DNA of 64,000 bases from a virus (Duplodnaviria > Heunggongvirae > Uroviricota > Caudoviricetes): IMG/VR virus record IMGVR_UViG_3300028887_000068, positions 1-64,000 of that record; one strand, 5' to 3'. Below are positions 15,137 to 63,291 of the stretch, piece after piece. The notes under the pieces are model-generated. The model had not been told where the DNA came from, searched no databases, and saw only the letters and a program-made list of their open reading frames with translations. The position numbers and the translations under genes are program-made. Position 1 is the first letter of the stretch; each line of letters begins with the position of its first letter.

Positions 15137-15153
15137 TAAACCTCCCTGTTAGT

Positions 15154-18301: not shown

Positions 18302-18302
18302 T

Positions 18303-22992: not shown

Positions 22993-23066
22993 ACATTTCT
23001 CCTTGTATACTCTTTATTATATACTATGAAAAAATAAAGCTCATGGACGAATCCATGAGCAATTCT

Positions 23067-23495: not shown

Positions 23496-23544
23496 TTTTC
23501 TCCTTTTTATTTTTTATTTTTAATAATACTTCAGAAAAAAGTCG

Positions 23545-26608: not shown

Positions 26609-27008
26609 TACTGTTTAACTCCTCTTGGCTGATTGCAGGATCAGCAGCTGGGTTAGGGTTTGTTATAACGCTGGTATTCCAAGATTCCATCCTCGGGAAG
26701 TGCTGCGTTGGCATGTTGTAGAATATGGACTGCAGCCATGCACGTACTTCCGGCAAGATTTTGTCATCAGGAACATTGTTAGCGTTTTGAGGATTAAAGA
26801 ATGGATTTTTATGGCTACGACCATCGATGGCAATAGCAGCTATGCGGTTAATGCTCCGTGCCGTATAGAATGTATGCGTAACCTTTACATTTGGATTTTC
26901 TCCATAGTAAAAGTGCAGTTTGTCTGGTTCCAGCCAAACATTATACACACTTTCCAGCAAGGACAAGTAACCGTCAAATGTCACGAACCTTACTTCTTTA
27001 TACAGCAA
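26577..27008 (-). CDS. paralog family B member 2
   Basis: MLYKEVRFV N-terminus. IAAIAIDGR core. VRAWLQSIFYNMP motif. Confidence 0.55.
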   Translation of the reverse strand: MLYKEVRFVTFDGYLSLLESVYNVWLEPDKLHFYYGENPNVKVTHTFYTARSINRIAAIAIDGRSHKNPFFNPQNANNVPDDKILPEVRAWLQSIFYNMPTQHFPRMESWNTSVITNPNPAADPAISQEELNSNVIQGSESSC

Positions 27009-27010
27009 GC

Positions 27011-27400
27011 TTACCTCGTTGAGTTAAGGGCATCCTGATCTACAACAACATCCTTCGGAGAACTAGGATCGGAGAAGTCTTCAATCTTTGCATAGTTCTT
27101 CGTCGGCATATTTGTAAACACAGCTTGCAGCCAAGCCAAAACATCAGGTTCGATGCTACTGTCACATGCTTCTGATGGAGCTTTTGCAAAGACATTCTTG
27201 TGGAACCTACCGTCGATGATAATAGCAACAATGCAGTTACAAGTCTTTGCTGCAATCTTGGTCTCTCGAACCTGAGTAGCTCCAGCGAACGAAACACTGT
27301 AAATTACCAACTCATTGTTAATTATCATAACTGAGTCAATATTTTCCAGTACAGCGAGTCGTCCGTTGGATGAGACGATTCTTATTTCTCTGTATATCAT
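27011..27400 (-). CDS. paralog family B member 3
   Basis: MIYREIRIV N-terminus. IVAIIIDGR core. VLAWLQAVFTNMP motif. Confidence 0.55.
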   Translation of the reverse strand: MIYREIRIVSSNGRLAVLENIDSVMIINNELVIYSVSFAGATQVRETKIAAKTCNCIVAIIIDGRFHKNVFAKAPSEACDSSIEPDVLAWLQAVFTNMPTKNYAKIEDFSDPSSPKDVVVDQDALNSTR

Positions 27401-33844: not shown

Positions 33845-36127
33845 TTAAGTGTTATGGCCTTTGAGACGCCATGTATATTCAGCCTTCTTACCCGGGTTCC
33901 ATCCTTCGAGACTACCAACGAGATAGCCAGTGATACGACGGATACGGTCGATCTCAGTGCTTCCGCAGAACGGACACTTGTCCTCGTTGAAGATACCTGT
34001 CTTATGGCAGTTACGGCAGTAGTCAACATCAATGTTAACAGCTCCATAGCCGACATTGTTGTCGTGCATACAGCGGACGATCTTTTCATAGGCTTCAAGG
34101 TTCTTGGTAGCATCACCGTCCATGTGGACATAGAGGATATGACCAGCATTGCACAATGCGTGGTACGGAGCTTCGACCTGAATCTTGTGGAAAGCCGAGC
34201 AAGGATATTCAACAGGAACATGGCAAGAGTTCGTGTAGAAGCCTTTATCTGTGATACCCGGAATGTCACCAAACTTAGCTCTATCAAGCTTTGTAAAGCG
34301 TCCAGAAAGTCCTTCAGCCGGAGTAGCGAGAAGAGTGAAGTTGAGCTTATACTGTTCCGTCATCTTGTCGCAATAGTCACGCATGTATTTGACGATTTCG
34401 AGACCCTTCTTCTGTGCTTCTTCAGATTCGCCATGATGGAATCCGGTCATGACCTTAAGGGTTTCTGCCAGACCGATGAAGCCGATAGAGAGGGAACCAT
34501 GCTTCAATACAGATTCGAGCGTGTCGTTCTTGCTAAGCTTTTCAGAATCTAACCATACATGTTGTCCCATGAGGAATTTGAAATTCTTAACACGCTGTTT
34601 GCACTGGAGTTGATAGCGTTCCAAGAGCTGATCCTTGACAAGTTCCATGTACTTATCGAGATCGGCGTAGAATCCTTCCCAGTTACCCTTATTAAGAAGA
34701 GCCAGACGAGGGAGGTTGATAGTTGTGAAGGAGAGATTACCACGTCTCCAAGCCTGTGGTCTGACGGAGTTGATATCTGCCATAACGCGCGTCCGACATC
34801 CCATTGTGGAAATCATCGTTTCCGGATGACCAGGCACGTAATACTGCATATTGAACGGAGAATCCTGGAATTCCCAGTTCGGGAAGAACCTCTTAGCGGA
34901 TACCTTAATGGCAAGCTTAAAAAGATCATAGTTAGGATCGCCTTCCTTGTAGTTTACACCATCCATCACACGGAAGATCTGAATCGGGAAGATAGGGGTT
35001 TCACCATGACCAAGACCTGCGTCTGTCACTTCAAGCATACAACGGATAACAAGACGAGCTTCCGTGGAGGTTTCCGTACCATAGTTGATAGAGGAGAACG
35101 GAACCTGAGCACCTGCACGGCTGTGCATAGTGTTGAGGTTGAACAGAAGTGCTTCCATTGCCTGATAGGTCTTTTCTTTGATAGTCTTCAAACCAAGCTT
35201 AAAGACACGCTTTGCTTCACATTCTTCAAAGCCAGCTGCCATGAAACGATCGACGAACTTCTTTTCATCGTCCATACCGAATTCATAGTCAGTCTTGAAG
35301 ATAGACTTGGATGTAGCCTTGATAGCAGCTTCGTCCATATCAGTAAGGAAGAGAGCGTCTTCGACACTGTGCTTGAGAGCCTTATTGAACGAGAGCTTGA
35401 CGTACTTTGCGAGAGCCAAGTCAAAGTTCGGGATAGACTGACCGCCGTGCTGGTCGTTCTGGTTAGACTGAATAAGGATAGCAGTCTGAGCAGCAGCTGT
35501 ACGGATAGACTGAGGAGGACGGACAAAGCCGTGACCAGTATTGAAACCTGTTTCGAGCATCTGCTGAAGGTCGATCTGTGTACAGGTGGTTGTGATGCCG
35601 TAAAAGTCCATGTCATGAATATGGATGAATCCTTCACGGTGAGCATTGGTAGAACGTTCTGCGATGATGCGATCAAGGAAGAATTCCTTAGCTGCTTCAG
35701 AACCATAGCGAAGCATCTTGCCCATAGCAGATTCGCCATCAATGTTGCCATTTTCGCGCTTGATAGCAGATTCGCTAAGATCGGAGAATGTGATTTCAGC
35801 GAGCTTAGAGTAAAGCGGCATCTTACGATTGCGAGCGCGGTTACGACGGTTACGGAAGTTACGATAAGCTTCGAATTCTTCGGTGAATCCCTTGTCCTTA
35901 ATCGCACAAATCACGATGGACTGCATTTCATCGATCTGGAGTCTTTCCGACTGAAGGTCGTGAATGTCATGGATTACTTCGTCAACAACAATCTGTACAT
36001 TCTGCGGGTCAACCGTCGTGTTATGACGTGCTGCCACTTCTGCGAATGACTTGTATACTGCGTTGAATACCTTGCGTTCCTCGAACGGAACTACTCTGCC
36101 GTCTCTTTTTTCGATCTCAGTGATCAT
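33845..36127 (-). CDS. nrdD: anaerobic ribonucleoside-triphosphate reductase (class III)
   Basis: N-terminal ATP-cone (MITEIEKRDGRVVPFEERKV). C-terminal Zn-ribbon CRNCHKTG...CPFCG and glycyl-radical motif RRITGYL. 760 aa. Confidence 0.85.
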   Translation of the reverse strand: MITEIEKRDGRVVPFEERKVFNAVYKSFAEVAARHNTTVDPQNVQIVVDEVIHDIHDLQSERLQIDEMQSIVICAIKDKGFTEEFEAYRNFRNRRNRARNRKMPLYSKLAEITFSDLSESAIKRENGNIDGESAMGKMLRYGSEAAKEFFLDRIIAERSTNAHREGFIHIHDMDFYGITTTCTQIDLQQMLETGFNTGHGFVRPPQSIRTAAAQTAILIQSNQNDQHGGQSIPNFDLALAKYVKLSFNKALKHSVEDALFLTDMDEAAIKATSKSIFKTDYEFGMDDEKKFVDRFMAAGFEECEAKRVFKLGLKTIKEKTYQAMEALLFNLNTMHSRAGAQVPFSSINYGTETSTEARLVIRCMLEVTDAGLGHGETPIFPIQIFRVMDGVNYKEGDPNYDLFKLAIKVSAKRFFPNWEFQDSPFNMQYYVPGHPETMISTMGCRTRVMADINSVRPQAWRRGNLSFTTINLPRLALLNKGNWEGFYADLDKYMELVKDQLLERYQLQCKQRVKNFKFLMGQHVWLDSEKLSKNDTLESVLKHGSLSIGFIGLAETLKVMTGFHHGESEEAQKKGLEIVKYMRDYCDKMTEQYKLNFTLLATPAEGLSGRFTKLDRAKFGDIPGITDKGFYTNSCHVPVEYPCSAFHKIQVEAPYHALCNAGHILYVHMDGDATKNLEAYEKIVRCMHDNNVGYGAVNIDVDYCRNCHKTGIFNEDKCPFCGSTEIDRIRRITGYLVGSLEGWNPGKKAEYTWRLKGHNT

Positions 36128-42812: not shown

Positions 42813-44777
42813 TTAGAACGGGAGATCGATGTCCGCAACCGGGGTGAACCCAGTAGCATCAAGATAGACGTCATCAAAGAATGAGACGCACTCGTCAGCG
42901 TTCTTGATTTCTTTCATATCCTTTACATCGGACTCATTGAAGATCTTGTATCGTTCTTCGAAGTTCGGTGTGATCTTCTTAGATGCACTGACAATGGCGT
43001 ACTTCTTACCAAACTTTTCAGAAGCATCTTTGAACTCTTCCGGAGTACATCTTGTCTTGTCGAACATGATTTCTGAAATATTCTTCAAGAGCTTGACGTT
43101 ATCGGCGAGTATCTTTCTCGTAGCCACAATACATTCCTTAATCATCGTATTGATTTCTTCGGATGTATCAGACATCTTATTATATTCGTTAGTATTTGGG
43201 CCAACCACAGCCTTGATCTTATCCGTGAATGCGAACTTACGAACATAGGCTGCTGCCATTGCGGTAGCCTTAGCCAAGTCTGAGCTACAACCCACAGTAC
43301 GGAAATCCTTACCGAAGACAAGCTCTTCAGCCACCATGCCAGCAAGAGCGACACAGATGTAGGACTTAAGAGTGATGGCGGTATGGCGGATCAAGTGCGT
43401 GGTAATGAAGCCAGCTGCGACTCTGGAGTCCGCAACAATGCTTACCATCTTGCGAGGAATAGCACCAAAGGATTCCGCATAGACGATAGCATGCCCAGCT
43501 TCATGAACAGATGTGCAACGTCTTTCGTTGACATGAGCCTTGATACGCTTAGCACTTTCGTCATACGGGCCGATGCAGCTAACCTTGATACCGTTAGCTT
43601 CAAGCTCCATAGTATCATCGTTGTACTTCACAGTGATCTTCTTATCAGCTTCTTTCTGTTTGAACACAAGGAACGGAACAGCCGAAGCCAGAACACCGTT
43701 GATAGTGGAAATAAGCGGACGAACACCTTGGGTTGGGAAGACACCATTGCGGTATACCATCTGCTTCACAGTCTTATCGAACGTGACTTCGATGCCTACA
43801 GCTTCCTTAGTGTGGTCTGCAAGAATCTGGAGATTCTGGTCAATGATCGTCTCAAAGCTCTTCTTCGAGAGTGAATGGAAGATCACAAAATTGTTTCCAA
43901 GACGGGCAATCTGTTCAGGGAAGAACCAACCAGTGAGACCAGCCTTCACATCAAAGACATTCACATCCTTAGAGGATTCGTAGACTTCATCTGCATCAAG
44001 TTCGCAAGATGCTACATCATTAGCATCAGAGAATACGCAGTCAAGGTTACAAGAAGTGACGAAGAGGAAACGGGTAAAGTCAGAATAGATCGGCTTATTA
44101 TCATAGTGATCATAGAGATCCTTGATAAAGTCGAAGGCGGCTTTGCCACAGAGTTTCTTGATTTCAGCAAGCGGTTTCTTTTTCTTGCAGAGAACGAAGA
44201 GACGGTAAGCCATCGTTCCAAAGAAAGCCGGACATTCGGCTCTACGTTTCATGACACCGTCTTCTGTTTTAGTATCGTTAATCATGTAGGCGATATTGCG
44301 CATCGTTCTTTCGAGTTCTTCCTTAGACAGATTCATTGGGATCTTGCCATCAGAAAGAATATCCCAGAATTCCTGTGTGTTGGAATTATTGGTTCTAGTA
44401 CCAAGCGCACCCTTACAGGAGAAGTTCTGGAATTCATCGATGAAAATGATACCCTTATCAAGACCGTCTTCTTCCTTCATACGGTAAGCAACCTGTGCCG
44501 GAGAGACAGAATTGTTATTAGCGCATGTCATCATCTGAGATACTTCGTTTAAGCCGAGTTCATCACAGAAGAGACGGAACATCTGCGTCTTACCGACACC
44601 AGTCATACCGACAAGATTGATAACCAGAGGCTTGGTCAGTAGCTCTGGAGCACAGTACCAAGGAGCCAGTAATTGAGCGAACTGGTCGATCTGCTTGTCA
44701 CAGTCGATGAGCTTCGTCTTAATTTTCTTAGCGGCTTCCATCAGTTCGTCATACTTTTTCATAGAGTCTTTATTCAT
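42813..44777 (-). CDS. FtsH-like AAA+ ATPase / HEXXH zinc metalloprotease (no TM anchor)
   Basis: Walker A GMTGVGKT and Walker B IIFIDEF. C-terminal HEAGHAIV is the FtsH HEAGHA motif, with ...MVAEELVFG...SSDLAKATAMA resembling FtsH GGRVAEEL.FG...SNDIERAT. Confidence 0.75.
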   Translation of the reverse strand: MNKDSMKKYDELMEAAKKIKTKLIDCDKQIDQFAQLLAPWYCAPELLTKPLVINLVGMTGVGKTQMFRLFCDELGLNEVSQMMTCANNNSVSPAQVAYRMKEEDGLDKGIIFIDEFQNFSCKGALGTRTNNSNTQEFWDILSDGKIPMNLSKEELERTMRNIAYMINDTKTEDGVMKRRAECPAFFGTMAYRLFVLCKKKKPLAEIKKLCGKAAFDFIKDLYDHYDNKPIYSDFTRFLFVTSCNLDCVFSDANDVASCELDADEVYESSKDVNVFDVKAGLTGWFFPEQIARLGNNFVIFHSLSKKSFETIIDQNLQILADHTKEAVGIEVTFDKTVKQMVYRNGVFPTQGVRPLISTINGVLASAVPFLVFKQKEADKKITVKYNDDTMELEANGIKVSCIGPYDESAKRIKAHVNERRCTSVHEAGHAIVYAESFGAIPRKMVSIVADSRVAAGFITTHLIRHTAITLKSYICVALAGMVAEELVFGKDFRTVGCSSDLAKATAMAAAYVRKFAFTDKIKAVVGPNTNEYNKMSDTSEEINTMIKECIVATRKILADNVKLLKNISEIMFDKTRCTPEEFKDASEKFGKKYAIVSASKKITPNFEERYKIFNESDVKDMKEIKNADECVSFFDDVYLDATGFTPVADIDLPF

Positions 44778-44812
44778 AATCTATCCTCAGTTTTCAATCT
44801 TAAGTTTTTCCA

Positions 44813-45274
44813 TTAGAGACCTGCATTAAGCGGACGTACTCCCATCTTTTTGTTACACCGCTTGCCGTAAGGTGTCATGCACATGCAGTTAGCCTTATTT
44901 ATAAACGGCTTCATAACCTTCTTCAGATGGAGTCTTTCTTCCGTATCAGGGCAATACTGTGTCTCGCCGTTCTCATCCTTGTAAGTACGAGCTGGCATGA
45001 TCCAATAATCCTTATTGTTTCTCTCAAGGAAGTAAGTCCCCCTGATAGTGTTAATAAGATAGTAGCCGCCTTCGTCGCCTTGTTCTATGGTTATCTGTTG
45101 GCTGTACTGTTGTCCGTTGCCAAACAGTGCAAAGTAAGTGTCCGTATAGTGAATGGCAAGAGAATCTCCAACTCTGAAGAAGTTGGAGAGTTCTGCGCTC
45201 ACTTGGTCGAATGGCCCACGACGGACGTTTGTCATTCTAGCCGAGTACGTCATAATTGCCTCACGGGTTAACAA
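44813..45274 (-). CDS. hypothetical protein
   Basis: 153 aa. It sits between the patatin and FtsH-like genes. Cys-rich C-terminus. Confidence 0.5.
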   Translation of the reverse strand: MLTREAIMTYSARMTNVRRGPFDQVSAELSNFFRVGDSLAIHYTDTYFALFGNGQQYSQQITIEQGDEGGYYLINTIRGTYFLERNNKDYWIMPARTYKDENGETQYCPDTEERLHLKKVMKPFINKANCMCMTPYGKRCNKKMGVRPLNAGL

Positions 45275-46124
45275 ACTTTAAGAGCTTTTCTCTATCTTCA
45301 TCGTACTGCTTATCCCAGATTTCGATGATAGACTCGATACAGCTTACGTCATCCATATCGAACGAGTTATGAACAACCGGAGCCACATTGAAGAAATTCT
45401 TTTCTCCCATCACAGCCTTGCATCTGAACGCAGCAGCCTTAGAAGAACGGGCTACCCAGTGCTTAAGGATATACTTAGCCCATCCAAGCATGGTCTGATT
45501 ACCCTTAATGTTAAGCGGAGGAGTAGTCATACCCGTTTCGAGGTTAAGGATACGGATATTTCTTTGTCCCTTAGCATACATGCCAGCCATGAGGTCATCC
45601 GGACAAGAGTTAGCCCATAGACCGCCATCACAGAAGCTTCTACCAAGGGTATCGACAATGACATCGAAGTATGTAGGAGCAGCGCAAGATGTAAGGATAG
45701 CGAACCACTTGTCCTCGGCATCATGGTTATCCCAGATCTTCTCATCGGAAGATCCGTTCATGTAAACGCAAGGAATGAAAGTAGGTTTACTCCACTCGCT
45801 AACCTTTCCCTTAAACTTGTCTTGAAGAATCTTCTTCAAGTTAGAATTGTCAAAAGGCGGACAAGTGGGAAGTAAACGCTTATACCAAGGATACTTGGTA
45901 AATATCTTCTTGCCTTCTTCTATATAGAGATTTTCCATCTCTACAGCTGAAATCCCTTCTGCCATTCCACCGGCCAGAATTGATCCAGTTGATGTCCCGG
46001 ATTGTGCTATAAGTCTCTCATGCAGAGGACACTTCAAATCGCCTTCCAATCTGGCGAGATAATGAGCCGGGCCTACTCCGAGGATTCCGCCTCCGGATAC
46101 TGATAAACAAAGACCTGAATTCAT
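45261..46124 (-). CDS. patatin-like phospholipase
   Basis: Oxyanion-hole motif VSGGGILGVG near the N-terminus and serine-lipase motif GTSTG (GxSxG). Confidence 0.75.
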   Translation of the reverse strand: MNSGLCLSVSGGGILGVGPAHYLARLEGDLKCPLHERLIAQSGTSTGSILAGGMAEGISAVEMENLYIEEGKKIFTKYPWYKRLLPTCPPFDNSNLKKILQDKFKGKVSEWSKPTFIPCVYMNGSSDEKIWDNHDAEDKWFAILTSCAAPTYFDVIVDTLGRSFCDGGLWANSCPDDLMAGMYAKGQRNIRILNLETGMTTPPLNIKGNQTMLGWAKYILKHWVARSSKAAAFRCKAVMGEKNFFNVAPVVHNSFDMDDVSCIESIIEIWDKQYDEDREKLLKFVNP

Positions 46125-46192: not shown

Positions 46193-46223
46193 TATGCCAT
46201 ACACACCAACAGGAGGTTAAACA

Positions 46224-46700
46224 ATGGCATTTTACGCTATGGTCTTAGATCCAAGACCGCCGTTCAAGCCTATGCAGACTAAAATTCTGAATAGACTGAA
46301 AGAGATCGCTTCAAATCTTCCGGAGGATATCCGCGAGGTTATCAAGAATCTCAAGGACTGGGAGATAAAATGTTCTCATATCACCGTATATTATGGAAAT
46401 CTCAAGGATATGTCGATCGCCATGATTGATTTTATCCGCAATACCAAATTCAAAATGATATTCGAGATTACCGATATCGGGATGAGACAGGGAGTTCTCG
46501 CTGTAAGGGTAGAACCGATCCTTAGAAAAGGCGAGGATTTCGTTACTAGTAGCAAGTTCCCGCATATTACGATTGCGGTGAAAGATGCTGCCCCAGTTCT
46601 GGCTAACAGCATTACTGAGTGGACAGATGTCCGTCAGTACTTCGACCATGCTCGTCATGGCGGATTCTACATCAGCGGTAGGCTGGAAAGAATCCATTAG
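46224..46700 (+). CDS. 2H phosphoesterase superfamily protein (LigT/ThpR-like)
   Basis: Two H-x-T-x motifs, CSHITVYYG and FPHITIAVK, spaced about 70 aa apart in a 158-aa protein. This is characteristic of 2H cyclic phosphodiesterases. Confidence 0.6.
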   Translation: MAFYAMVLDPRPPFKPMQTKILNRLKEIASNLPEDIREVIKNLKDWEIKCSHITVYYGNLKDMSIAMIDFIRNTKFKMIFEITDIGMRQGVLAVRVEPILRKGEDFVTSSKFPHITIAVKDAAPVLANSITEWTDVRQYFDHARHGGFYISGRLERIH

Positions 46701-46702
46701 AT

Positions 46703-46735
46703 AAGGGAGAGGTTTCTCTCCTTTATTTTTTTTTT
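46703..46735 (+). terminator. rho-independent terminator
   Basis: gggagaggtttctctcc hairpin followed by tttatttttttttatttt. Confidence 0.7.
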
Positions 46736-46794
46736 ATTTTTATAAAAAGAGAAAAAATAAAACTCGAAATTGTAAATTGAACAATGGAGATTCT

Positions 46795-47451
46795 ATGCTT
46801 GGTGAACGCAGAAGTGCAGGAATTATAGATACTGATCGCAGGATCCAGTATACGAAACAAAAGGATGTGTTTCCTTATGAAAGACTTCCGGCAGAAGCTG
46901 TTAAAGACATTTATTTTTATGGGGAGACTCCTGAAAGCTTTAGTTCTGTCATACCTGTTCCCGTTAGTGGTAGTACTGATGGAAGCTCTAGTTCTGATGT
47001 TCCTACTCCCGCAGTAGATGATACACCACACTTCATTGCTATCAAATGTATCGCTAACGATCGTAAAAAGCTTAACAAGTTTTACGTTCCTAGATTTGTA
47101 AATGCCGTTAACGAGTATCTTGCTGCTAGAGAAGCTGATATCCGTATCATGGCAGACTGTCAAATGGGATTCATCTACAGATGCAAGATCATTCGTATCG
47201 TTGACGAGAACGACAAAAAGAAATTTGAAGTGGACAAGGAAGGGATGCTCACGCTTCTTCAGGAGTATCAGAATGACTCTTATACAGGAAGAGCATACGA
47301 TCCTATCGCTAATGCTTCTCTCGAACCTTCTGTTATCGCTAGAATCGAAGTTCCCTATGGGCATTATCTTGGGTTCTTCATTCCGGAACAGAAACTTGTA
47401 GACATCTACCCTGAGCTCATTGAGAAGGGTGTGTTCGAGATTGCCGAATAA
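46795..47451 (+). CDS. hypothetical protein
   Basis: GGAGA lies 6 nt upstream of the ATG at 46795. Confidence 0.55.
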   Translation: MLGERRSAGIIDTDRRIQYTKQKDVFPYERLPAEAVKDIYFYGETPESFSSVIPVPVSGSTDGSSSSDVPTPAVDDTPHFIAIKCIANDRKKLNKFYVPRFVNAVNEYLAAREADIRIMADCQMGFIYRCKIIRIVDENDKKKFEVDKEGMLTLLQEYQNDSYTGRAYDPIANASLEPSVIARIEVPYGHYLGFFIPEQKLVDIYPELIEKGVFEIAE

Positions 47452-47527: not shown

Positions 47528-50500
47528 ATGAGTCGCTTTATATTAAAGCCCTTGAAGTGGATCTGGACGGACGAAGTTGGTACTCCGTATGACCCTCCGG
47601 TTAATGGCAATACCGCGAGAATCTTGGATCCTGCTCTCCCGCGTGTCGGAGAAATCTTTATGGACAAGCAGGGTGTTCTTTATACGCATGTTATCAAAAA
47701 CCTAAACCACGAATATGTTAAATGTGGTGGTTCCGGTAATGGTGCTTCCTTGGACGGAGAAGTACTGAAGGCAAGAACACCTCTCAACCGCAATGGACAG
47801 ATTAAGAGCGATTCCACTATCGTCGATGTTACTTCCCTTGATAACGTGTATGTAGCGGCTCTTATCTCCGAAAGTGGTACGAAGAAGGTTCTTCTCGGCG
47901 ACTTCAATGATGTTCTTAATAATCGTTCTGATGTCTTCATTGAAGCATGTACGGTTGAAAGTGATGCAACACGTGTCTTCATTACGAGATCTGCCTTTGG
48001 TATTGTTATTCTCGTTTTCGGTGCTACAAGTGGACTGAAGCTTTATGCGCTTAATTCTGCGGCTGGTGCTACTGGCGAGCGTTATATCGAGAAGAGCATC
48101 GATCTTCCGAGCGGTGTCACATTTACTAGTATTCTTCAGATCTCTGAAGAAGGTCATTTCCTTGCTGCATGTGGTCTCACGAGTCCGTATGTATTCTTGG
48201 TTGATCTTAGCAACCCCGACAATATCTTTACCGAGACTCGTATTACTGGTAATGTAACCTTCGCAAAGACAATCTCTAAAGTGAAGCAAAGCTTCTGTCC
48301 TTTTGTTAAGGAGAATGAAAAGGTCTTCTATTACGCAAAGGATGCGAACGGCTCACTGCTGAAGATTGTTTATAGCAACGGCACACTTGTCTCTCTGGTT
48401 CCAGTTAGTAATATCGACTTTGATGACGGTTTTGAAGTCGGAACCAAGTTCTTTGTCCATAAGACAGCTAGTAATGTAGCTCTGTTTGATGGCAATGAAA
48501 GTAAAGCTCTTGGTTTTAATGTTAACCTTGGAACCGTCATTGATGATATTGACTATCAGGCTTCTAACAAGCGTGATGGCGAAATAGAAAACAATGCTTC
48601 GTTTACTGCTATCAGAAGTATTGGCACCGCTAATACCGACTGTGTGTTTGCTTCTTTCTTCAATGATCTTAGCAACGTACCGGGAAACGAAGACAAAAAT
48701 GCTTATATTGAGCATGTTGCTAGTTTGACCGGGCTTACCAAAGATATCATCTATCTTGGTCATGGTTTCGTAGCATCTGTCAATGACGCTAAGGCTTATT
48801 CTTTCAATATCGGCTTCATTGAGGCATTCAAGCACATTGAAGCAGCAGAAGTCTCTAGCCGTTTTACGAGTGTTGTATCTACGGATAAAGCGCGCAAAAC
48901 GGTAATGAATCCATCTGCCAATGATGCTGGAGACGGAAAATTCATTGATAACAAGTCTACTTTCAGTAACACGGAAGTGGGAGAAGAAGTTCGTGCTAAC
49001 TCTGCTAAGTCTTACCTGCATAGCAATGAAAATGGCACGTCGTCTATTGAATCTATCGTAGACTCTTCGTCGTCGAGTCCTTATGCCAAGCATGAAATCA
49101 AAAGGGGCGAGAGCAGCAAAGTCACGTCCGTAGTAGACACGAACAGTGCATCCATCCGCGAAGGTACTGGAAACAGCAAGTACTTTGAGGTGAAGAGCGA
49201 TGCTAATGGCCAGAATGCTAAGATGGTAAACGGCAGTACCGAAATTCATCTTAGAGAAGAAAGACAAGACTCTTCTATTATCGAAGCTGTCGGCAATGGT
49301 TGGGATACCGTGTTTGGTTCTGTTGCTACTACAGAGGAAGCTAAGAGCTATCTTGGTTCCGGTGCTGATTCTGGTACGCAGTCTTACACGTATGATGACA
49401 CGAGTTTCTCGTATAAGCATAGAAGCGATCCAGTTTACGTAGAACAAACAGCTGTGGTAAGCAGCAATAAGCGAAAAGCCGGGGCTGTTTATAACGCTGT
49501 CGGATCTGGAAATCCGAATAACGAAAGTGTGGTTTCTATCGATGCTAGCGGTGGTACTGGCAGTAATTTCTATGCAAAGAATACTGTCAGGACTAAAGTT
49601 GCCAACGGCTACGAGAGTATCATTACTAATGAAGCCACCGGAACGGGCAATACCGCTGCAACAAAGCATTCTCTTATTAATACCTCGAACGTAGAGGTAT
49701 CCACTGTAAAAGAAGAAGTTAAGGCGACAGAATCCGTTGTAGAAACACGTCATGTCTACACCTATAGTGGAAATACCAGAATACCAGTAGCAAGAATGAG
49801 AAGCACCAATAATCTTGGTGTAATGGAGATTATTCCTAACGAGACTGGCACTTCTGCTGATAACTTCGATAAGAGCATTCTCCAAGTCGAATCTGGCAAG
49901 AGCTTGTTCTGGCAGAGATGCAGAAATACCGACGGCGATGCTTCGTTATCCTTTAAGTCTGATGTCAACGCTACGGAAAATGGCGGATTTGTTGATACCT
50001 CTCTTAGAGAAGGCAACACAGACTCTCATGCTGTGGATATGCGCATTGACTTTACTGGAAATGAGTATGACACAGAAAGATCCCGCTTCAGAACAAGAAC
50101 CATCGGTAATACTAGCGGTGCTTACGTCAATATCGAGACGAGAAACAAAACCGATAGTCTGCATGATTACGCCTATGCGAATATCGAGCTCGAAGCATAT
50201 GGCACAACAAGTCCTCTTGGAACTATCGGCTATACGAACATCGGAGCGGACAAGACAGTCATTCAGGACTCCAAGGATAGTTATGACTTCCGCACGGTTC
50301 TTTACAAGAAAGGATTGAATGCGGTAAATACGTCTTACTCCAGAAGCGGAACGCTCTTGATAGTGGAGAACAATGAAGAGTACTCTTCCGGTGAGACGAA
50401 TTACGATCCGTTAATCCTTACGAGACGCTTCCTTGATTCTGGATCTGCTAGTAATAGAACCTATAGAAACTACGACTTTGGTGTTGAAAGAAGACCAATG

Positions 50501-51844
50501 ATTATCACCAATAACAGCGAAAGTTTCTATCATAGCGATAACGACTTTGTTGCTTACATAAGCAAACAGAACCTCAGCTTATATGACAAATTCGCTGACC
50601 GTTATTCCGGTTTCAATGACGAAGGTTTTGCCACCTACAGCTTCGATGGTACTAATCTCGGAAATACCAGACACGATATTCTTGCTTCAATGCTCTTACC
50701 TAGCGGTCTGTTCTTGATGACGAGAAAAGACTCTGGTACGGAAGTAAGAGAACGTGTCGCAATTACAAGCAACGGTATCGTAAAGTACAATGTAGACCAA
50801 TCGCATCCGTTTAAGAATATCATCGCTGCTGGTCATAGTGACTTCACGAAGACAGACTTCGATGATCCTAGCTTAAGCGTCGTCGACAAGGGAGAATGGA
50901 GTGATGTGATTAACTCCTCGAAACTTGTCAAGGGCTGTGATGCACAAGGCAATTGCGGTAGCAATACGAAATTTGTCTATGTTGAAGGTCATGAGCTCAA
51001 GGCTCATACAGGCAAGATAGGAAATGAGTATAGTGGCTCCATGCACATCAACTCTAACGGAGAATTTGCCACTAATGAAACGTCTGTCGACGTTGTCGTT
51101 TCTGTGAATCTAGACCGTAGTTCTGCCGTTGAAATGCCATTGTATGATCCTAGAGATTCGTCCCAAACTACCTACGGGTCTTGCTATCTTCTCGATGCCG
51201 AGATCTTCTACAATGGTATTTCTATGGGCAAATGCCGTATCCCGAGCTTCAATGGTGATAACGCTAACAAGTTGCGCTACTATCCTTCGGGAGCTAAGTG
51301 TCCTGCTGGCTTAACACAGCTTGACGGCTCTGGAGACAATCCTATAGGTAACTATAAGGATATGTTCTACAAGCTAGCTCGCCTTGGCTCAAGACTTAAG
51401 GTGTACTGCTACGGTACTGCTCTTATGCCTTGGACGGTTCTGTGGTTCCCGACTCTGGATTCCAATATGACCTATATCGGCATGTCGCCAGAATATAACC
51501 TCGAGATGGAAATAGTTTCTTGGTCAGTTCCGGTTAGCGTTGTCTTTGGCCTGAACGATACTCATGTGGATAATCAGCCGGGAGAAGTACAGTTGAACAG
51601 AAGTACATGGCATTATTTCAATGATGCTAGAATTCTGCCTCTTGTCGCTCTCAACGATAATGCTTATCAAGCTATCTACAGCTACAATATGCGTATGCAC
51701 ATTGCTGTACAGAATCGTGTCTCACAGAATATCGGTGTAGTCCTGAATGGCGATATATTCTTCTATGGTGCTACGCCTACTGGAGTATCCCGCAGTGTGT
51801 TGATGAACCTGCCTAGTGCCGGAACAGCATATCCGTTCTCTTAG
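47528..51844 (+). CDS. giant beta-rich protein (1438 aa), tail fiber / tailspike-like
   Basis: AAAGGAGA precedes the ATG. Composition is dominated by S/T/N/G/Y/D, as in phage fibers or receptor-binding proteins. No enzymatic motif was recognised. Confidence 0.6.
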   Translation: MSRFILKPLKWIWTDEVGTPYDPPVNGNTARILDPALPRVGEIFMDKQGVLYTHVIKNLNHEYVKCGGSGNGASLDGEVLKARTPLNRNGQIKSDSTIVDVTSLDNVYVAALISESGTKKVLLGDFNDVLNNRSDVFIEACTVESDATRVFITRSAFGIVILVFGATSGLKLYALNSAAGATGERYIEKSIDLPSGVTFTSILQISEEGHFLAACGLTSPYVFLVDLSNPDNIFTETRITGNVTFAKTISKVKQSFCPFVKENEKVFYYAKDANGSLLKIVYSNGTLVSLVPVSNIDFDDGFEVGTKFFVHKTASNVALFDGNESKALGFNVNLGTVIDDIDYQASNKRDGEIENNASFTAIRSIGTANTDCVFASFFNDLSNVPGNEDKNAYIEHVASLTGLTKDIIYLGHGFVASVNDAKAYSFNIGFIEAFKHIEAAEVSSRFTSVVSTDKARKTVMNPSANDAGDGKFIDNKSTFSNTEVGEEVRANSAKSYLHSNENGTSSIESIVDSSSSSPYAKHEIKRGESSKVTSVVDTNSASIREGTGNSKYFEVKSDANGQNAKMVNGSTEIHLREERQDSSIIEAVGNGWDTVFGSVATTEEAKSYLGSGADSGTQSYTYDDTSFSYKHRSDPVYVEQTAVVSSNKRKAGAVYNAVGSGNPNNESVVSIDASGGTGSNFYAKNTVRTKVANGYESIITNEATGTGNTAATKHSLINTSNVEVSTVKEEVKATESVVETRHVYTYSGNTRIPVARMRSTNNLGVMEIIPNETGTSADNFDKSILQVESGKSLFWQRCRNTDGDASLSFKSDVNATENGGFVDTSLREGNTDSHAVDMRIDFTGNEYDTERSRFRTRTIGNTSGAYVNIETRNKTDSLHDYAYANIELEAYGTTSPLGTIGYTNIGADKTVIQDSKDSYDFRTVLYKKGLNAVNTSYSRSGTLLIVENNEEYSSGETNYDPLILTRRFLDSGSASNRTYRNYDFGVERRPMIITNNSESFYHSDNDFVAYISKQNLSLYDKFADRYSGFNDEGFATYSFDGTNLGNTRHDILASMLLPSGLFLMTRKDSGTEVRERVAITSNGIVKYNVDQSHPFKNIIAAGHSDFTKTDFDDPSLSVVDKGEWSDVINSSKLVKGCDAQGNCGSNTKFVYVEGHELKAHTGKIGNEYSGSMHINSNGEFATNETSVDVVVSVNLDRSSAVEMPLYDPRDSSQTTYGSCYLLDAEIFYNGISMGKCRIPSFNGDNANKLRYYPSGAKCPAGLTQLDGSGDNPIGNYKDMFYKLARLGSRLKVYCYGTALMPWTVLWFPTLDSNMTYIGMSPEYNLEMEIVSWSVPVSVVFGLNDTHVDNQPGEVQLNRSTWHYFNDARILPLVALNDNAYQAIYSYNMRMHIAVQNRVSQNIGVVLNGDIFFYGATPTGVSRSVLMNLPSAGTAYPFS

Positions 51845-51857: not shown

Positions 51858-51925
51858 CCTCTTGCATCTAATGGTGCAAGGGGGAGTATTTTATAAAGGT
51901 GGATCCAAGATCCACCTTTTATTTT
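51858..51925 (+). terminator. tandem terminator hairpins
   Basis: ccttgcatctaatggtgcaagg, then aggtggatccaagatccacct followed by tttatttt. Confidence 0.6.
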
Positions 51926-51961
51926 ATGGAACTCCCTATTAGAACTAAACAAGGATCTAAC

Positions 51962-54900
51962 ATGAGAGCAAAGTATGATTTCCTGAAGCCGTACAAATCC
52001 TACAAGAATCTCACTATCGAATTCGCCACGAAGCGTAAACAGTATGAGAACAGTGTGATTGTGTACACGGAAAGCCTTGAGAATATGATACAGCTGATGA
52101 ACCGCCGTATCTTTGATCCTCAGCACATCTGGGCTTTCTACATGGACAAATTTATTGATAAGATTGTCTTCAAGAAAACCATTCAGACGGAAAGACTGTC
52201 TATCTACGACCAAGTTAAAGAAAAGACTGGCGTAGCCCTGACACCGCTAAACACTGGTGTACTCAGATTGAAGAATACCTACTTCTCTGCATATCAGGAA
52301 CTCAACCGTTTGTTTGAGATTCCGGGATCTGCTAAGAACAAAATGGCATACATCCATAACTTCGCCGCTGCAAACGCAGTGGTTATGAGACGTGGCTCTG
52401 AAGCTATATACAAGGATCAGTATGTGATTCTTGATGGTAGTATCTTTGGCAAGGAATTCGGTGACAACGAATCTGTCAATATCAGAGGTCTCTGCGTGGG
52501 TTCTCTCTTCTATCTGGCTGCCAAGGAAGCAATCACTAAGAACAATCCGGCTCTCTGGCCTCTTCATGGAAAGAAGTGTATCCTTGTTGAACCGAATACT
52601 GGGTTGATGTTTATCATTCCGCCATCTTTGGAGAAGCTTACTCTAGCCAGATTCAGATGGATGCTTAACCTCTGTCACAAGGGTGCAACTGCTCAGAAGA
52701 TTACCGAAGAAGACATGGCAGAACCGACAGAAGGAGAACCGCTGAAAGCTCCGAAGGCAGTAACGGATCTCTTCTTGGTCGAAAGAGCTGTTAGCGGAAA
52801 GAATAATACTTTCCCTTCTGGAGCAAAGCTCTATACGACTACAGCCGAAGCCATTGAAGCATACATCAAGGCTACATACCCGGATGCCGCTTGTAACCCG
52901 GTCGAAGATGCTATCGTCTTTACTGGCGACACTCAGTCTGCTGATGCTATCAAGGCTATGATGAACAAGTCATTGTCTCTCTACCGTATCAAAGCTACAG
53001 ATGAGACGATGAAGACAATCACGAAGCTCTCTGGCTACTATAAGAGCAAGTCTAGTATCCAGCTCGAACAGTATAAGAATATCGCCATCAAGAAGAGTGG
53101 TGATACTGTCAACGGTGTTAAGATTTACATTGACCTTTCATCTGAGAATCCGGCTATCGCCGAAAAGAAAGATGAAGTGATCAAGAGTATTCCGGGTATG
53201 AATAACTCTGTTCCGCTTACGAGCGAACAGAAGGAACTCGTTTATACCATTAAAGACCGTGTTGACGAAATCAGTGCCGAAGCCAAGGGCAAGACTTTCG
53301 ATGAACTGATGAAGATGGTTAATGAAGATGAGAAGCTTAACAATCTGAAAACAGAATTGAAGGCTAACCGTCTTCAGGAAGTCCAGAACATTCGTAAATC
53401 CGAAGCTGTAACTCAGCTTGAAGAAAAGCAGGAAGAAGCTGTACTCGTCATCAATGGTAAGTCTATTCCTTTGAAAGAAAAGCTGAAGGAACTCGAAGAC
53501 TCTAATCTTGAACCGGAGCATTTTGAAACCACAGCTGTAAACAAAGAAGTGAACAGTGCTGTCGTTCCGGCTCTCCGTAAGGCATACCGCAAGGACTTGT
53601 ACGATTACGACCAGTATCGTATCTTTACATCTTTCTCTGATTCTTCTGAATTCCCGATCTTCGTTAACTCCATCACTAAGGAAGACTCCTCCGATGCTTA
53701 CAATGCTAAGGAGACCCTCAACATCAAATTTAGCATTGCAGGTGGTGCTCCGAAGTCTCTTATCGTGGATGTTCCGAAGGTTGACCAAGACGGATTCCTC
53801 TATCTTCAGGGTAACCGTAGACAGATCACCAACCAGATTACTCTTATGCCGATCGTTAAGGTATGGCAATCTGGTGATCCGGTTGTACAATACTCTACAT
53901 CCTACAACAAGATCTTTATCTCTAGATCTACGCAGACATTCAACCGTAGGCTAGCTTCTCTGAGAAAGGGTATCGGTAAGCTGAAGGAAGACCGTAATCT
54001 GAATAAGGACGGAGCAGTAATCGTTCCGGGTAGGGGCTATCGTAAGAAGTTCCCGAAGAGACTCAATCTTGAATACGAAGAATTGGGCAAGTTCCTCTCA
54101 GCTTACAAGATTGGCGATCTTGATATCGACTTTGACCCGAAGCGTTGTTTTGAAACTGTTGAGAAGCTCGACAAGGAACTCATTGCAGAATACGCTCCTG
54201 AAGGCAAGTTTAACTATATCGGTAAGCTGAAGGGTAAACCTCTCTTTGCAGCTGTTACTGGCGAAGTTGTTACGCTTGATAAAGACGGTATCACTGAAGT
54301 TGCTAAATCTATCTGCGCATTGATCAATGAATGCTCGAAGGTCTCCAAGACTATTTCTGAAACCCTTGAGAACAACAAGTACACGGGTAATAGCCTCATG
54401 TTTACGAAGCTGGAAGTGGCTAATGCTTACATTCCGCTTATTGTGTTCTTGGGCTATAAGGAAGGCATTGAAAAGATCTTTGATACATACGGAGTAGACT
54501 ACAAGTTCCTTCCGATTGAAAAGGGAATGGACAGACCCGCTGCAAGCGAAGATTATCCCGAAGCCATTAAATTCCGTAATGGTTATCTCGTGTTCAAGGA
54601 TGATAATCCGGTTCACGGATTGCTTTATAACGGTCTCCATCAGCTTGAGACCCAGAAGCATAACCTTGAAGACTATAAGGCAGGTGGACAAGGATTCGTT
54701 GATTACTTTGCAGACAAGCTCACACCGAGATATGGCAGAGCCTTGGATAACTTCTATGTGCTCTTCATCGACCCAATTACGAAGGACATCCTCCGTGATA
54801 AGGGAATCCCCAATAACCTCGTTGGAAGCTTCCTGTATTGTAACGATCTTCTTATCGACTCTGCGTTCTCTAGACGCTATGACATTAATATCTACCGTAT

Positions 54901-56542
54901 CCGTAACACCGAATGTATCAATGCCATGCTCTACAAGATTGTGGCTAGAGAAATCGAATCCTACCGTAGAACGGGAACGGGTACTGGCGGTGCTTTCAAG
55001 ATTAAGCGCAATGCTTTGATGGAAGAAATCAATGAGACTGCTAACTTTGAAGACTCTACCTTGATCAATCCGATTAAGGACTGTGAGAACATGGCAAAGT
55101 CCATCTTCAAAGGCCCCGGTGCTCCAGACTATCAACATGCCCAAGGCACTGAAGAACACCGTTTCTTCGATATCAGCATGACTGGTATTTATGGCTACTC
55201 TTCTTCTTATGACGGTAATGCTGGCATGAACAAGAAGCTGTCCATGAATTCCTCCATCGTGTCTAAGCGTGGTTACTTGAAGCAGGTTGACCCGAACAAG
55301 ATTGATGCTACGGCGATCTACAGTACTGGTGAACTTGCTGCATCCTTCACTTGTCGTCATGCCGACCCGGCTCGTTCTATGATGTGCGTGCTTCAGACTG
55401 GCCATATGATTCCGTCTGTAGGTATGAGCCAACCGCTTGTATCTTCCGGCGTGTTCAAGGCTATTCCGAACATTGTATCGCAGGACTACTGCTTTAAGGC
55501 TCCGTGTGCAGGTGTAGTCAAGGGTTTTGATTCCAAGCTCAAGAATCTCTTGAAGCTCGAATACACCGATGGCACTAAGGGCATCATTGACATGACTCCG
55601 AGATACTGCCGTACTCCATCTGGCTTCTTTGTCCATATTGAATACGCATTGAAGCATGGAGTAAAGGCTGGATACAAGTTTACTGAGAATGAAGTGTTAG
55701 CCTTTGACAAGCACTTCTTCAAGGACGACCCGGCTGAAGGTATCGAAATGTACAAGGGTGTGCTCGCTAGAGTAGCAGCATGTGGTCTTGACCAGACATA
55801 CGAAGATGCTTCTGTCATTAGCCAGAACCTGTCTGAAAAGCTCGCTTCTGAAGTGATCGAACAATCTGCTCTTGGTTTGACGGCTGACAGTAACCTTATC
55901 TCCATCAAGAAAGTGGGCGACAAGGTGAAGGTTGGCGAACCGCTTGCTATCTTTGAAAGCAGCCTTGAAAGCAAGGAAATCTCTTCGTTGCTCTCCAAAC
56001 TTGATACGGATACCAAGTCAGCATTGGAAGCTAACGCTAGAAACTCCAAGCTTTCTAAGTACGAAGGTACAATCGTTGACATTGAAGTATTCTACGATAA
56101 GCCGATCGAAGAGTACAGTGAGAGCCTCCAGAAGCTCATTAAGTCCTACATTAAGGATGTGGAAGCCACGAACAAGGCTTACTCTGAAGTAAGGTCTGAC
56201 CAACTTGTCAGACGCAAGGATACAGAGATTGCAAAATACAGCAAGGCAAAGGGCGTTCCGTTTGAGGGCGTTATGATTAACTTCTATATCTCGCATCTTC
56301 TTGACTACTCTTGCGGTGATAAGATCACTTATGACGTTGCACTTAAGAGCATCGTGAGCCGAATCATTCCACAGAATGAAACTCCAATTTCCGAATACAG
56401 ACCGGACAAGCCGATTGATGCTTGCACTAGCCCGTATGGTATCGTCAACCGTAAGGTTCCTGACGTGTTCTATCTTGGCTATACGAATAAAGCACTAATT
56501 GGCCTCAAGGAACGTGTTGAGGAGATCTGGAATGGCAAATAG
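51962..56542 (+). CDS. giant protein (about 1526 aa) with RNAP-beta-like hybrid-barrel motifs, function unknown
   Basis: AAGGAT lies 6 nt upstream of the ATG at 51962. The ORF-track start at 51899 lies inside the terminator hairpin. VGDKVKVGEPLAIFES and YEGTIVDIEVFYDKP resemble the sandwich-barrel hybrid motifs of bacterial RpoB (GDILVGKVTPKGE / VSGTVIDVQVFTRDG). Confidence 0.6.
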   Translation: MRAKYDFLKPYKSYKNLTIEFATKRKQYENSVIVYTESLENMIQLMNRRIFDPQHIWAFYMDKFIDKIVFKKTIQTERLSIYDQVKEKTGVALTPLNTGVLRLKNTYFSAYQELNRLFEIPGSAKNKMAYIHNFAAANAVVMRRGSEAIYKDQYVILDGSIFGKEFGDNESVNIRGLCVGSLFYLAAKEAITKNNPALWPLHGKKCILVEPNTGLMFIIPPSLEKLTLARFRWMLNLCHKGATAQKITEEDMAEPTEGEPLKAPKAVTDLFLVERAVSGKNNTFPSGAKLYTTTAEAIEAYIKATYPDAACNPVEDAIVFTGDTQSADAIKAMMNKSLSLYRIKATDETMKTITKLSGYYKSKSSIQLEQYKNIAIKKSGDTVNGVKIYIDLSSENPAIAEKKDEVIKSIPGMNNSVPLTSEQKELVYTIKDRVDEISAEAKGKTFDELMKMVNEDEKLNNLKTELKANRLQEVQNIRKSEAVTQLEEKQEEAVLVINGKSIPLKEKLKELEDSNLEPEHFETTAVNKEVNSAVVPALRKAYRKDLYDYDQYRIFTSFSDSSEFPIFVNSITKEDSSDAYNAKETLNIKFSIAGGAPKSLIVDVPKVDQDGFLYLQGNRRQITNQITLMPIVKVWQSGDPVVQYSTSYNKIFISRSTQTFNRRLASLRKGIGKLKEDRNLNKDGAVIVPGRGYRKKFPKRLNLEYEELGKFLSAYKIGDLDIDFDPKRCFETVEKLDKELIAEYAPEGKFNYIGKLKGKPLFAAVTGEVVTLDKDGITEVAKSICALINECSKVSKTISETLENNKYTGNSLMFTKLEVANAYIPLIVFLGYKEGIEKIFDTYGVDYKFLPIEKGMDRPAASEDYPEAIKFRNGYLVFKDDNPVHGLLYNGLHQLETQKHNLEDYKAGGQGFVDYFADKLTPRYGRALDNFYVLFIDPITKDILRDKGIPNNLVGSFLYCNDLLIDSAFSRRYDINIYRIRNTECINAMLYKIVAREIESYRRTGTGTGGAFKIKRNALMEEINETANFEDSTLINPIKDCENMAKSIFKGPGAPDYQHAQGTEEHRFFDISMTGIYGYSSSYDGNAGMNKKLSMNSSIVSKRGYLKQVDPNKIDATAIYSTGELAASFTCRHADPARSMMCVLQTGHMIPSVGMSQPLVSSGVFKAIPNIVSQDYCFKAPCAGVVKGFDSKLKNLLKLEYTDGTKGIIDMTPRYCRTPSGFFVHIEYALKHGVKAGYKFTENEVLAFDKHFFKDDPAEGIEMYKGVLARVAACGLDQTYEDASVISQNLSEKLASEVIEQSALGLTADSNLISIKKVGDKVKVGEPLAIFESSLESKEISSLLSKLDTDTKSALEANARNSKLSKYEGTIVDIEVFYDKPIEEYSESLQKLIKSYIKDVEATNKAYSEVRSDQLVRRKDTEIAKYSKAKGVPFEGVMINFYISHLLDYSCGDKITYDVALKSIVSRIIPQNETPISEYRPDKPIDACTSPYGIVNRKVPDVFYLGYTNKALIGLKERVEEIWNGK

Positions 56543-62473: not shown

Positions 62474-63211
62474 CTATTGGTTAATAGCTTGCTTAATAGT
62501 TTCGCCAAGCTCTGTGTAATCTTTGTCATAAACCTTAACGAAGGCAAGATTTCTCTTGCTCATGGCAAAATCCTTCGCCTTTTCGATGTCAAGATCCCTA
62601 GCACGGTAATGCTTATTCTCGGCGCTCTTTACTTCGATAACGATCTTCAGATTGCCGATGTAGACATCAGGGATATAGAAATGCTCTTTGTCGTCTCTAG
62701 GAGACTTATAACTCACTACAAACGGTGCAGGAGCAAAGACTTCTGCTGATGGAATTCCAAGTTCATCGAGGAATCTCAGGCAGTCTTCTTCGTAGCTTCC
62801 TGTATAGGTGAACTCTCTGCTTCCGTCAGACCAGACATACTTGCCAGATATCTTTCGATTGGCTAGCATCTTCTTTTGGACTTCAGGATCATCGAGCAAA
62901 GTAGCTCTGCCGTAAGTCTTCATCATACGATCGACGAACATCTTTCTATACTGCTGTCTCTCTGTGTTGTCAGCGAGACGCTCATATTTTCCAGTTGTTT
63001 CGTTCCACTTAGTCGGCTTGCCGGACAAAATAGACTTACCGAATCTACGGAACGGATCAAGACGATTACGAATATTGAAGATATACTGCTTTGCGGTGAT
63101 GTGCTTTCCTGCCAGTACCGCACTATGAACCTTCTCAAAGTGTTCTGCACAGCTATCCCAAGAGATAAAAGCTTTCTTACAAATAGGACAAGGGCATTTA
63201 GGTACGGACAT
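62474..63211 (-). CDS. C2H2 zinc-finger + PD-(D/E)xK nuclease-fold protein
   Basis: Start at MSVPK (ATG 63211, after TAGGAG). N-terminal CPCPICKKAF...HFEKVH. C-terminal IPDVYIGNLKIVIEVK (PD...ExK). Confidence 0.5.
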   Translation of the reverse strand: MSVPKCPCPICKKAFISWDSCAEHFEKVHSAVLAGKHITAKQYIFNIRNRLDPFRRFGKSILSGKPTKWNETTGKYERLADNTERQQYRKMFVDRMMKTYGRATLLDDPEVQKKMLANRKISGKYVWSDGSREFTYTGSYEEDCLRFLDELGIPSAEVFAPAPFVVSYKSPRDDKEHFYIPDVYIGNLKIVIEVKSAENKHYRARDLDIEKAKDFAMSKRNLAFVKVYDKDYTELGETIKQAINQ

Positions 63212-63291
63212 AGTAGCTCCTATAAATTTCAATCTAAAGTTTTTGCCATATAAGAAATACAACCTCTTGCGAAGTTGTATTTCTAATAAGA

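Follow-up and report, generated by a model that had tools for sequence, protein, structure and literature searches.

Medium-sized and jumbo phages commonly encode 2H domains, which are predicted to clear 2',3'-cyclic ends for RNA ligases, and CCA-adding enzymes and RlaP are predicted to restore lost nucleotides (PMC7824862, PMC9503650). In the CPD of the fungal and plant tRNA ligase Trl1 (PF08302; PDB 6u00/6u05), Tyr647 in strand beta-1 and His687, five residues after the proximal His, have been proposed as contacts of the terminal nucleoside, and Asn763 (four residues before the distal His) and Asn782 (fifteen after it) hold active-site waters (PMC7145591). In CNPase, the base lies clamped between Phe235 (+5) and Val321 (+12), and the carbonyl of Pro320 touches the nucleophilic water (PMC3290555). 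The order KIN-CPD is that of both the Trl1 healing module and CNPase (PMC5434554), and the published structural match profile of the Trl1 CPD itself runs from CNP (13.8) to ThpR (6.1). Goldfish RICH is grouped with CNPase as a close system.

Two further types of 2H enzyme have to be considered in a phage. Acb1 (T4 gp57B; PDB 7t27, 9q2y; PF23474) cuts internal 3'-5' bonds of cyclic oligonucleotides and has a C-terminal lid. The 2H type that phage annotations usually name is LigT/ThpR (PF13563, PF02834; PDB 4qak, 1vgj, 5h7f); its expected chemistry, RNA>p to RNA 2'-phosphate, is the same as that expected of the protein described here. Below we compare with these systems a 2H gene found in a 64-kb stretch of phage DNA (the window).

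The 2H gene and its genomic surroundings

The window is part of a large (jumbo) phage genome of roughly 240 kb, and a member of the 90%-identity cluster of the 2H protein (P0156) lies on a 242-kb contig. The same phage is present in a few animal-associated metagenomes. A megablast of the 12 kb around the 2H gene against the phage collection returned nothing, that is, no close deposited relative. Besides the 2H gene, the window encodes virion proteins, an NrdD and a multisubunit-RNAP beta-like protein (Table 1).

Table 1. Features of the 2H locus and of the phage that carries it (window coordinates unless a contig is named)
Feature	Coordinates	Strand	Remarks
Band_7/SPFH + flotillin protein	46-1437	+	463 aa
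ORF with NUDIX-box-like motif	10223-11536	-	436 aa; motif at residue 342
NrdD	33845-36127
AAA+/Peptidase_M41 FtsH-like protein	42813-44777	-	patatin operon
153-aa protein	44813-45274	-	patatin operon
Patatin phospholipase	45261-46124	-	PADLOC CBASS 'Effector Phospholipase' models, 1e-37
Candidate promoter/leader motif TGTATATTAAA	46181-46191	+	11-mer; 3 exact copies in window
Shine-Dalgarno AGGAGG	46211-46216	+	7 nt 5' of the 2H-gene ATG; read from sequence
2H phosphoesterase ORF	46224-46700	+	ATG start; 158 aa; stop codon included
Proximal motif CSHITVYYG	46371-46397	+	residues 50-58; H52, T54 predicted catalytic
Distal motif FPHITIAVK	46557-46583	+	residues 112-120; H114, T116 predicted catalytic
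Helix start after motif 2	46593-46622	+	P124-V125-L-A-N128-S-I130-T-E-W133; from conservation
Intrinsic-terminator-like hairpin + T-run	46699-46738	+	terminator scan
224-aa protein	46777-47451	+	past the 2H terminator; no match to family models searched
1438-aa protein	47528-51844	+	before the RNAP beta-like gene; no match to family models searched
Multisubunit-RNAP beta-like protein	51899-56542
Tad2-like protein	L077:938-1486; L078:940-1488		182 aa; PF11195; adjoins an HNH_3 gene

The initial annotation had credited the 2H gene with a promoter and a terminator of its own, and the second of these holds. A hairpin with a 13-bp stem at 46699-46728 and a loop of 4 nt, its foot overlapping the stop codon, is followed by a T-run (consensus scan). 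As for a sigma-70 promoter, the number of sigma-70-like matches near the gene (3 against 2.5 expected) is at chance level, and this candidate was discarded. Upstream of the gene, we found that the 11-mer TGTATATTAAA has exact copies also at 1490-1500 and 4596-4606, all three being on the plus strand and each lying 33-45 nt before an ATG. The leader in which the copies are embedded is conserved over about 45 nt (…GTATG.CCAT…AGGAGG…ATG) and has AGGAG(G) as its end. The genes behind these leaders are those at 1531-2013, about 4636-4926 and 46224-46700. When one mismatch was allowed, six matches were obtained against 1.8 expected, a number reached in 3 of 100 shuffles. Given that the exact 11-mer recurs before ATGs within a conserved leader, it is plausible that it marks a promoter/leader class specific to this phage.

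Further upstream, the 2H gene faces an operon headed by a patatin phospholipase. The two had been described as convergent, which is wrong: the patatin gene and the 2H gene are divergent, lying head-to-head. No cyclase was seen with the patatin operon (42813-46124), in which the phage carries a CapV-like effector. The order of genes is kept in a related phage (L075), whose patatin, 224-aa protein and 2H protein are respectively 57%, 44% and 34% identical to those of the window.

Some 8-9 kb to the right of the window, this phage also has a gene for a Tad2-like protein. Tad2 is a family of Thoeris anti-defence sponges, and the phage apparently has, in this gene, at least one anti-signalling function. 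Elsewhere, a Pfam scan of the window ORFs returned one NUDIX and one cytidylyltransferase-like match together with His_Phos_1, PspA and DUF7487, and Pfam gave no matches on the ten 5'-proximal ORFs of the window. By synteny with L077, the DUF7487 match is most likely that of the minus-strand ORF at 62474-63262, and the ORF with a NUDIX-box-like motif (Table 1) possibly encodes a NadM-Nudix type NAD-salvage enzyme. The PspA/IM30 match and the Band_7/SPFH protein, encoded elsewhere in the window, together form a set of phage membrane-remodelling or membrane-stress proteins. We also observed long runs of tightly packed minus-strand ORFs of 100-170 aa (14323-23904 and 26039-27397). Several neighbouring small ORFs in these runs are paralogous at 27-35% identity (15539-18322, 26039-27397) and have no Pfam match, and the runs read as tandemly duplicated gene arrays.

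Motifs, family and fold of the 2H protein

The twin H-x-T motifs on which the gene was first singled out are both present, and the H and T residues of each (H52, T54, H114 and T116) are the same in all of 15 distant homologues and in 90 of 90 aligned sequences. This invariance, together with the score of a leave-out HMM given below, shows that the motifs did not arise by chance. In the alignment of distant homologues, W46, G86, A93, P124, N128, I130 and W133 are invariant as well. In the 90-sequence alignment, P124, N128, I130 and W133 are again invariant, V125 is found in 89 of the 90, and position 57 (+5 from H52), a Tyr in our protein, is always F or Y. The family is further characterized by a Y or F in beta-1, by an Asn at -4 of the distal His (87/90) and by the sequence K-P-V-x-S-N following motif 2. 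The 2H protein retains F3, Y57, P124, V125 and N128, as well as W46, G86, A93, A118, I130 and W133, but at nine positions it lacks the residue that is near-invariant in the family, N110S, K123A and S127A being among these changes. Ser110 is the counterpart of Trl1 Asn763. Judged from these alignments, the protein is a divergent member of its family.

Searched alone against Pfam, PHROGs, PADLOC, NCBIfam and PDB sequences, the 2H protein gave only noise, and a word-indexed protein search with the single sequence recovered only a 99% twin. By exhaustive phmmer against 1.8 billion representatives, we found 14 further proteins with E values from 2e-8 to 1e-3 and 29-44% identity, the best link being to P0002 (E 1.8e-8). 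A follow-up profile search extended the family to at least 425 proteins, mostly standalone and 134-140 aa long (about 135 aa), and no functional name was found when the names of these 425 were checked. With tblastn, members were located in crAss-like Bacteroides phages (PhiCrAssBcn series, Kolpuevirus) and in Prevotella Lak megaphages, always as 'hypothetical' or unannotated, and other gut and rumen phages carry the family too. For one member (P0079, on contigs L006, L007 and L008), the called 290-aa product is not translatable from the DNA under code 11. This suggests that stop codons are probably reassigned in some of the phages carrying the family.

Membership of the 2H protein in this family is not circular, since an HMM built on 88 members from which the protein and its 99% twin were excluded still gives it 56.8 bits, against 3.0 bits for T4 Acb1 and 5.6 bits for a LigT-like domain. 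At the level of known families, 13 of the 15 distant homologues matched PF08302 (tRNA_lig_CPD; best E 8e-8), and several relatives carrying fusions scored above its gathering cut-off of 23 (23.8-26.2 bits). The 2H protein itself has no match to PF08302 even at E<=10, its link to this model being transitive via the family profile. The LigT models gave only weak matches, in 2 and 1 of the 15 distant homologues, and the 2H protein does not match the LigT/ThpR profiles (PF13563, PF02834). The Acb1 model PF23474 was matched neither by the 2H protein (E<=10), nor by the 15 homologues (E<=1), nor by the CPD domains of the fusion proteins (E<=0.01).

The 2H fold had been proposed from the motifs, and structure prediction upholds it. 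The AF2 model obtained from the 90-sequence alignment has a pLDDT of 90.4 and a pTM of 0.86 (from the single sequence, the pLDDT was 52 and the model unusable). It displays a bilobed alpha+beta fold with a central concave sheet and places both HxT motifs in predicted strands (E52-58 and E114-119). A two-helix insert occupies residues 16-41, and the C-terminus is a beta strand (149-156) with no obvious lid. With Foldseek against the PDB, the first match was the KIN-CPD of Candida albicans Trl1 (6u05), followed by about 40 CNPase chains. Among BFVD viral models, the best were giant-virus proteins of 200-770 aa, one of them a 765-aa 'RNA ligase', and Acb1 ranked 9-10.

In structural comparison, the model scored 10.4 with the catalytic domain of mouse CNPase (132 residues aligned) and 7.2 with Acb1 of Burkholderia phage BCSR5. 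Scores were 6.4 for the Deinococcus CPDase, 6.1 for both Acb1 of phage FBB1 and the Arabidopsis Appr>p CPDase, 6.0 for both the Penguinpox cGAMP PDE and MHV ns2, and 5.7-5.8 for enzymes of LigT/ThpR type. On the basis of this model, the match profile is the same as the one published for the Trl1 CPD, and CNPase, RICH and the Trl1 CPD are the nearest neighbours in structure, clearly separated from other 2H enzymes.

Comparison of the family profile with PDB sequences allowed the likeness to be followed along the chain. The TYYGIAM sequence of Trl1 aligns with beta-1 of the family, 767-HIT-769 with the distal motif, and HITIGCIPPATAVESN with motif 2 and the following helix. Accessory residues were mapped to Trl1 and CNPase by sequence spacing and not by superposed coordinates. 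On that spacing, Y57 would be the equivalent of CNPase F235 and Trl1 His687, P124/V125 would correspond to CNPase P320/V321, and N128 to Trl1 Asn782.

The 2H protein and the Trl1 CPD have in common the 2H fold and the dual HxT motifs and, by sequence spacing, would share an aromatic residue in beta-1, another at +5 of the proximal His and an Asn about 15 residues after the distal His. Like Trl1, our protein also seems to lack an obvious basic residue at the position equivalent to Arg130 of ThpR. It differs from Trl1 in being a standalone protein of 158 aa with no kinase or ligase fused or nearby, in having a Ser where an Asn sits four residues before the distal His, in falling about 90 residues short of the 250 positions of Pfam model PF08302, in its two-helix insert (16-41) and in its phage rather than eukaryotic origin. 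The catalytic domain of vertebrate CNPase (PDB 2xmi, 2ydd) shares 11% sequence identity with the 2H protein. Unlike our protein, CNPase has ~215 residues with extra loops, is membrane-associated and is preceded by an inactive N-terminal kinase-like domain. Its R307 has no evident counterpart in the 2H protein.

Fusions and gene neighbours across the family

The genomic context of the family was examined in a set made of 59 IMG/VR loci, two long phage contigs and the window, which fell into 36 groups at 80% identity. In the IMG/VR loci, ORFs with the CPD domain often exceed the length of the domain. We found that 28 of the 36 groups have at least one RNA-end-processing partner fused to the family member or encoded within 10 kb of it (union of seed searches). 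A CCA-adding enzyme is fused or at most 10 kb away in 20 groups; in four of these it is fused, and in five more the ORFs abut or are at most 4 bp apart. A P-loop polynucleotide kinase is fused in the order KIN-CPD in 8 of the 36 groups, and an HD-Pnk is nearby in 8 more. Other partners are HAD_SAK-like proteins (5 groups), RlaP (5) and RNA ligase (3). In the two long phage contigs, the family gene ends 2 bp before the gene of a CCA-adding enzyme, and a protein with HD and P-loop-kinase domains (HD-Pnk type), RlaP, an RNA ligase and DUF932 are all encoded within 7 kb.

Regarding the fusions themselves, Pfam identified four combinations. An AAA_33 polynucleotide kinase with the Walker A sequence GIPGAGKS joined to CPD (L020, L042, L051 and five more groups) gives these relatives the domain order of Trl1 and CNPase. 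PolyA_pol, the CCA-adding enzyme, is joined to CPD in L015, L048, L052 and L065, and CPD is joined to HAD_SAK_1 in L060. HAD_SAK_1 is the HAD domain found in RNA-repair proteins of the 'Swiss Army Knife' kind. In L070, the CPD is joined to an ART-PolyVal ADP-ribosyltransferase domain.

L065 carries a LigT/Acb1-like 2H domain (PF13563 3e-7; PF23474 4e-5) alongside the CPD-type domain, and because both coexist in this locus the two types of 2H domain are distinct modules. The uninterrupted ORFs at L065:2288-10366 and L052:5348-10327 (2693 and 1660 codons, respectively) each join a CCA-adding enzyme to a CPD-type 2H domain, the LigT/Acb1-like 2H domain being present in L065 only, and both look like polyvalent RNA-repair polyproteins.

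The copy in the window stands apart from this pattern. Coupling to a 5'-OH polynucleotide kinase, seen in other groups of the family, is not found for this standalone protein. Neither the 64-kb window nor the ~8 kb to its right was found to encode an RNA ligase, a polynucleotide kinase, a CCA-adding enzyme or a tRNA, and phmmer searches of all window ORFs with the relatives' CCA-adding enzyme, HD-Pnk, RlaP, Rnl and DUF932 returned none. Conversely, no patatin was found near the family gene in the other 35 groups, so that the adjacency to patatin is a trait of this lineage and not of the family.

Function of the 2H protein

Taking the fold, the family and its partners together, we give a probability of roughly 0.58 to the reading that the 2H gene encodes a metal-independent RNA 2',3'-cyclic phosphodiesterase of the Trl1-CPD/CNPase clade that would act in the healing of tRNA and other RNA ends. 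Two functions had been put forward at the outset, RNA repair and immune-signal cleavage of Acb1 type. The former agrees with CNPase and Trl1 as nearest structures, ahead of Acb1 and the viral 2'-5' PDEs, with the PF08302 matches and with the partners of the relatives, and the latter found no backing in the comparisons with Acb1 (an hhalign probability of 2% and 3.0 bits).

The substrate, regiochemistry and biological role that we infer are the following. The enzyme would act on the 2',3'-cyclic phosphate that metal-independent ribonucleases of the host leave on RNA, and above all on tRNA; candidates are anticodon nucleases, toxin or abortive-infection RNases and enzymes clipping the tRNA 3' end. 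This would be the opening step of tRNA/RNA repair, and its product would be a 3'-OH/2'-phosphate end, to be dephosphorylated, extended or ligated by other enzymes. By homology, the general acid for the 3'-O leaving group is predicted to be H52; H114, as general base, would activate the attacking water, and T54 and T116 would hold the phosphate. F3, Y57 and V125 may sandwich the terminal nucleoside, and the backbone of P124 together with N128 may organise active-site waters. The genes for partner enzymes of this copy may lie in another part of the roughly 240-kb genome, or the host may supply such enzymes.

We do not rate the RNA-repair reading higher because its substrate is taken from relatives, the copy is divergent and no partners are linked to it. 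It also counts against this reading that the only conserved neighbours are the CapV-like patatin operon and proteins of unknown function.

The fold alone does not fix the substrate, since CNPase-type enzymes also act on free 2',3'-cNMPs. The protein could be a small-molecule cyclic phosphodiesterase hydrolysing free 2',3'-cNMPs, as products of RNA decay or as signals, or the ADP-ribose 1''-2'' cyclic phosphate (Appr>p) produced by Tpt1/KptA-type reactions, in nucleotide or NAD-ADPr metabolism. The enzyme that it matches best in structure, CNPase, hydrolyses both 2',3'-cNMPs and 2',3'-cNADP (PMC3290555), and phage 2H domains have been linked to KptA and to ADPr>P processing (PMC9503650). The NUDIX, cytidylyltransferase-like and His-phosphatase proteins of the window and the one relative fused to an ART-PolyVal domain point the same way. 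However, no KptA/Tpt1 was found in the window, the NAD-related genes lie ~35 kb off and are unlinked to the 2H gene, and the dominant partners of the family (kinase, CCA-adding enzyme, RNA ligase) act on polynucleotides. We regard such a metabolic role as unlikely, although it is the alternative that fares best.

Less likely still is an anti-defence nuclease like Acb1, which would cleave the cyclic di- or trinucleotides of CBASS or type III CRISPR, or 2'-5' signals, and thereby block the host effectors. This idea draws on the 2H fold, on a size and His spacing (H52/H114) near those of T4 Acb1 (H44/H113), and on the head-to-head patatin, which matches CBASS effector models at 1e-37 in a pairing kept in the related phage. 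The Tad2-like gene indicates that the phage invests in anti-signalling, and the loss of several family-conserved residues could mark a change of substrate. However, no family-level sequence relationship to Acb1 is detectable. Alignment with T4 Acb1 by hhalign gave the 2% mentioned above, the family HMM prefers the 2H protein to T4 Acb1 by 56.8 to 3.0 bits, and PF23474 finds no match among the family members scanned even though it does match the other 2H domain of L065, which indicates that the model works here. Moreover, CNPase and Trl1 are clearly closer in structure than Acb1 is, the fusions of the relatives (kinase, CCA-adding enzyme, HAD_SAK_1) point to RNA ends, and the patatin adjacency, absent from 35 other groups, is lineage-specific. 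In every membership test that we ran, the sequence thus falls outside Acb1. An activity of this kind is biochemically conceivable, since 2H enzymes evolved such activities repeatedly.

A related idea is that, in this jumbo-phage lineage, a Trl1/CNPase-type 2H enzyme has been repurposed to degrade a host CBASS-type signal, or else a phage-made signal controlling the patatin. It takes up the losses N110S, K123A and S127A, the uncoupling from RNA-repair partners and the head-to-head patatin, and we consider it improbable, slightly more so than kinship with Acb1. If true, 2H anti-signalling nucleases would have a second clade, of independent evolutionary origin, in the repurposed copy. Finally, a degenerating or non-catalytic remnant (fast-evolving and binding only, or drifting without function) is very unlikely: despite the nine departures from the family consensus and the 34% identity to the L075 orthologue, against 44-57% for the neighbouring proteins, the four predicted catalytic residues and W46, G86, A93, A118, P124, N128, I130 and W133 are intact, the strong Shine-Dalgarno, conserved leader and terminator are present, and the full-length ORF is conserved in related phages.

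Phage 2H phosphoesterases with a predicted role in RNA repair are already known, and this gene is a new, divergent member of them. What is gained for the gene is a change of annotation from 'hypothetical protein' to probable RNA 2',3'-cyclic phosphodiesterase, with the anti-CBASS reading made less likely. For the family, the clear affinity to Trl1 and CNPase is useful as annotation and makes a modest point about evolution, without amounting to a new kind of system. It means that a type of CPD best characterised in eukaryotes is widespread and unannotated in gut and rumen phages of Bacteroidota. The fusions in which it occurs there are of the types KIN-CPD, CCA-adding-enzyme-CPD and CPD-HAD. 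For specialists of RNA repair this picture of the family has some interest, and the phage CPDs may offer them small, tractable models for Trl1-type end healing. Together, these data suggest that repair of the tRNA 3' end, by removal of the cyclic phosphate and then re-addition of CCA, is a common counter-defence of phages.
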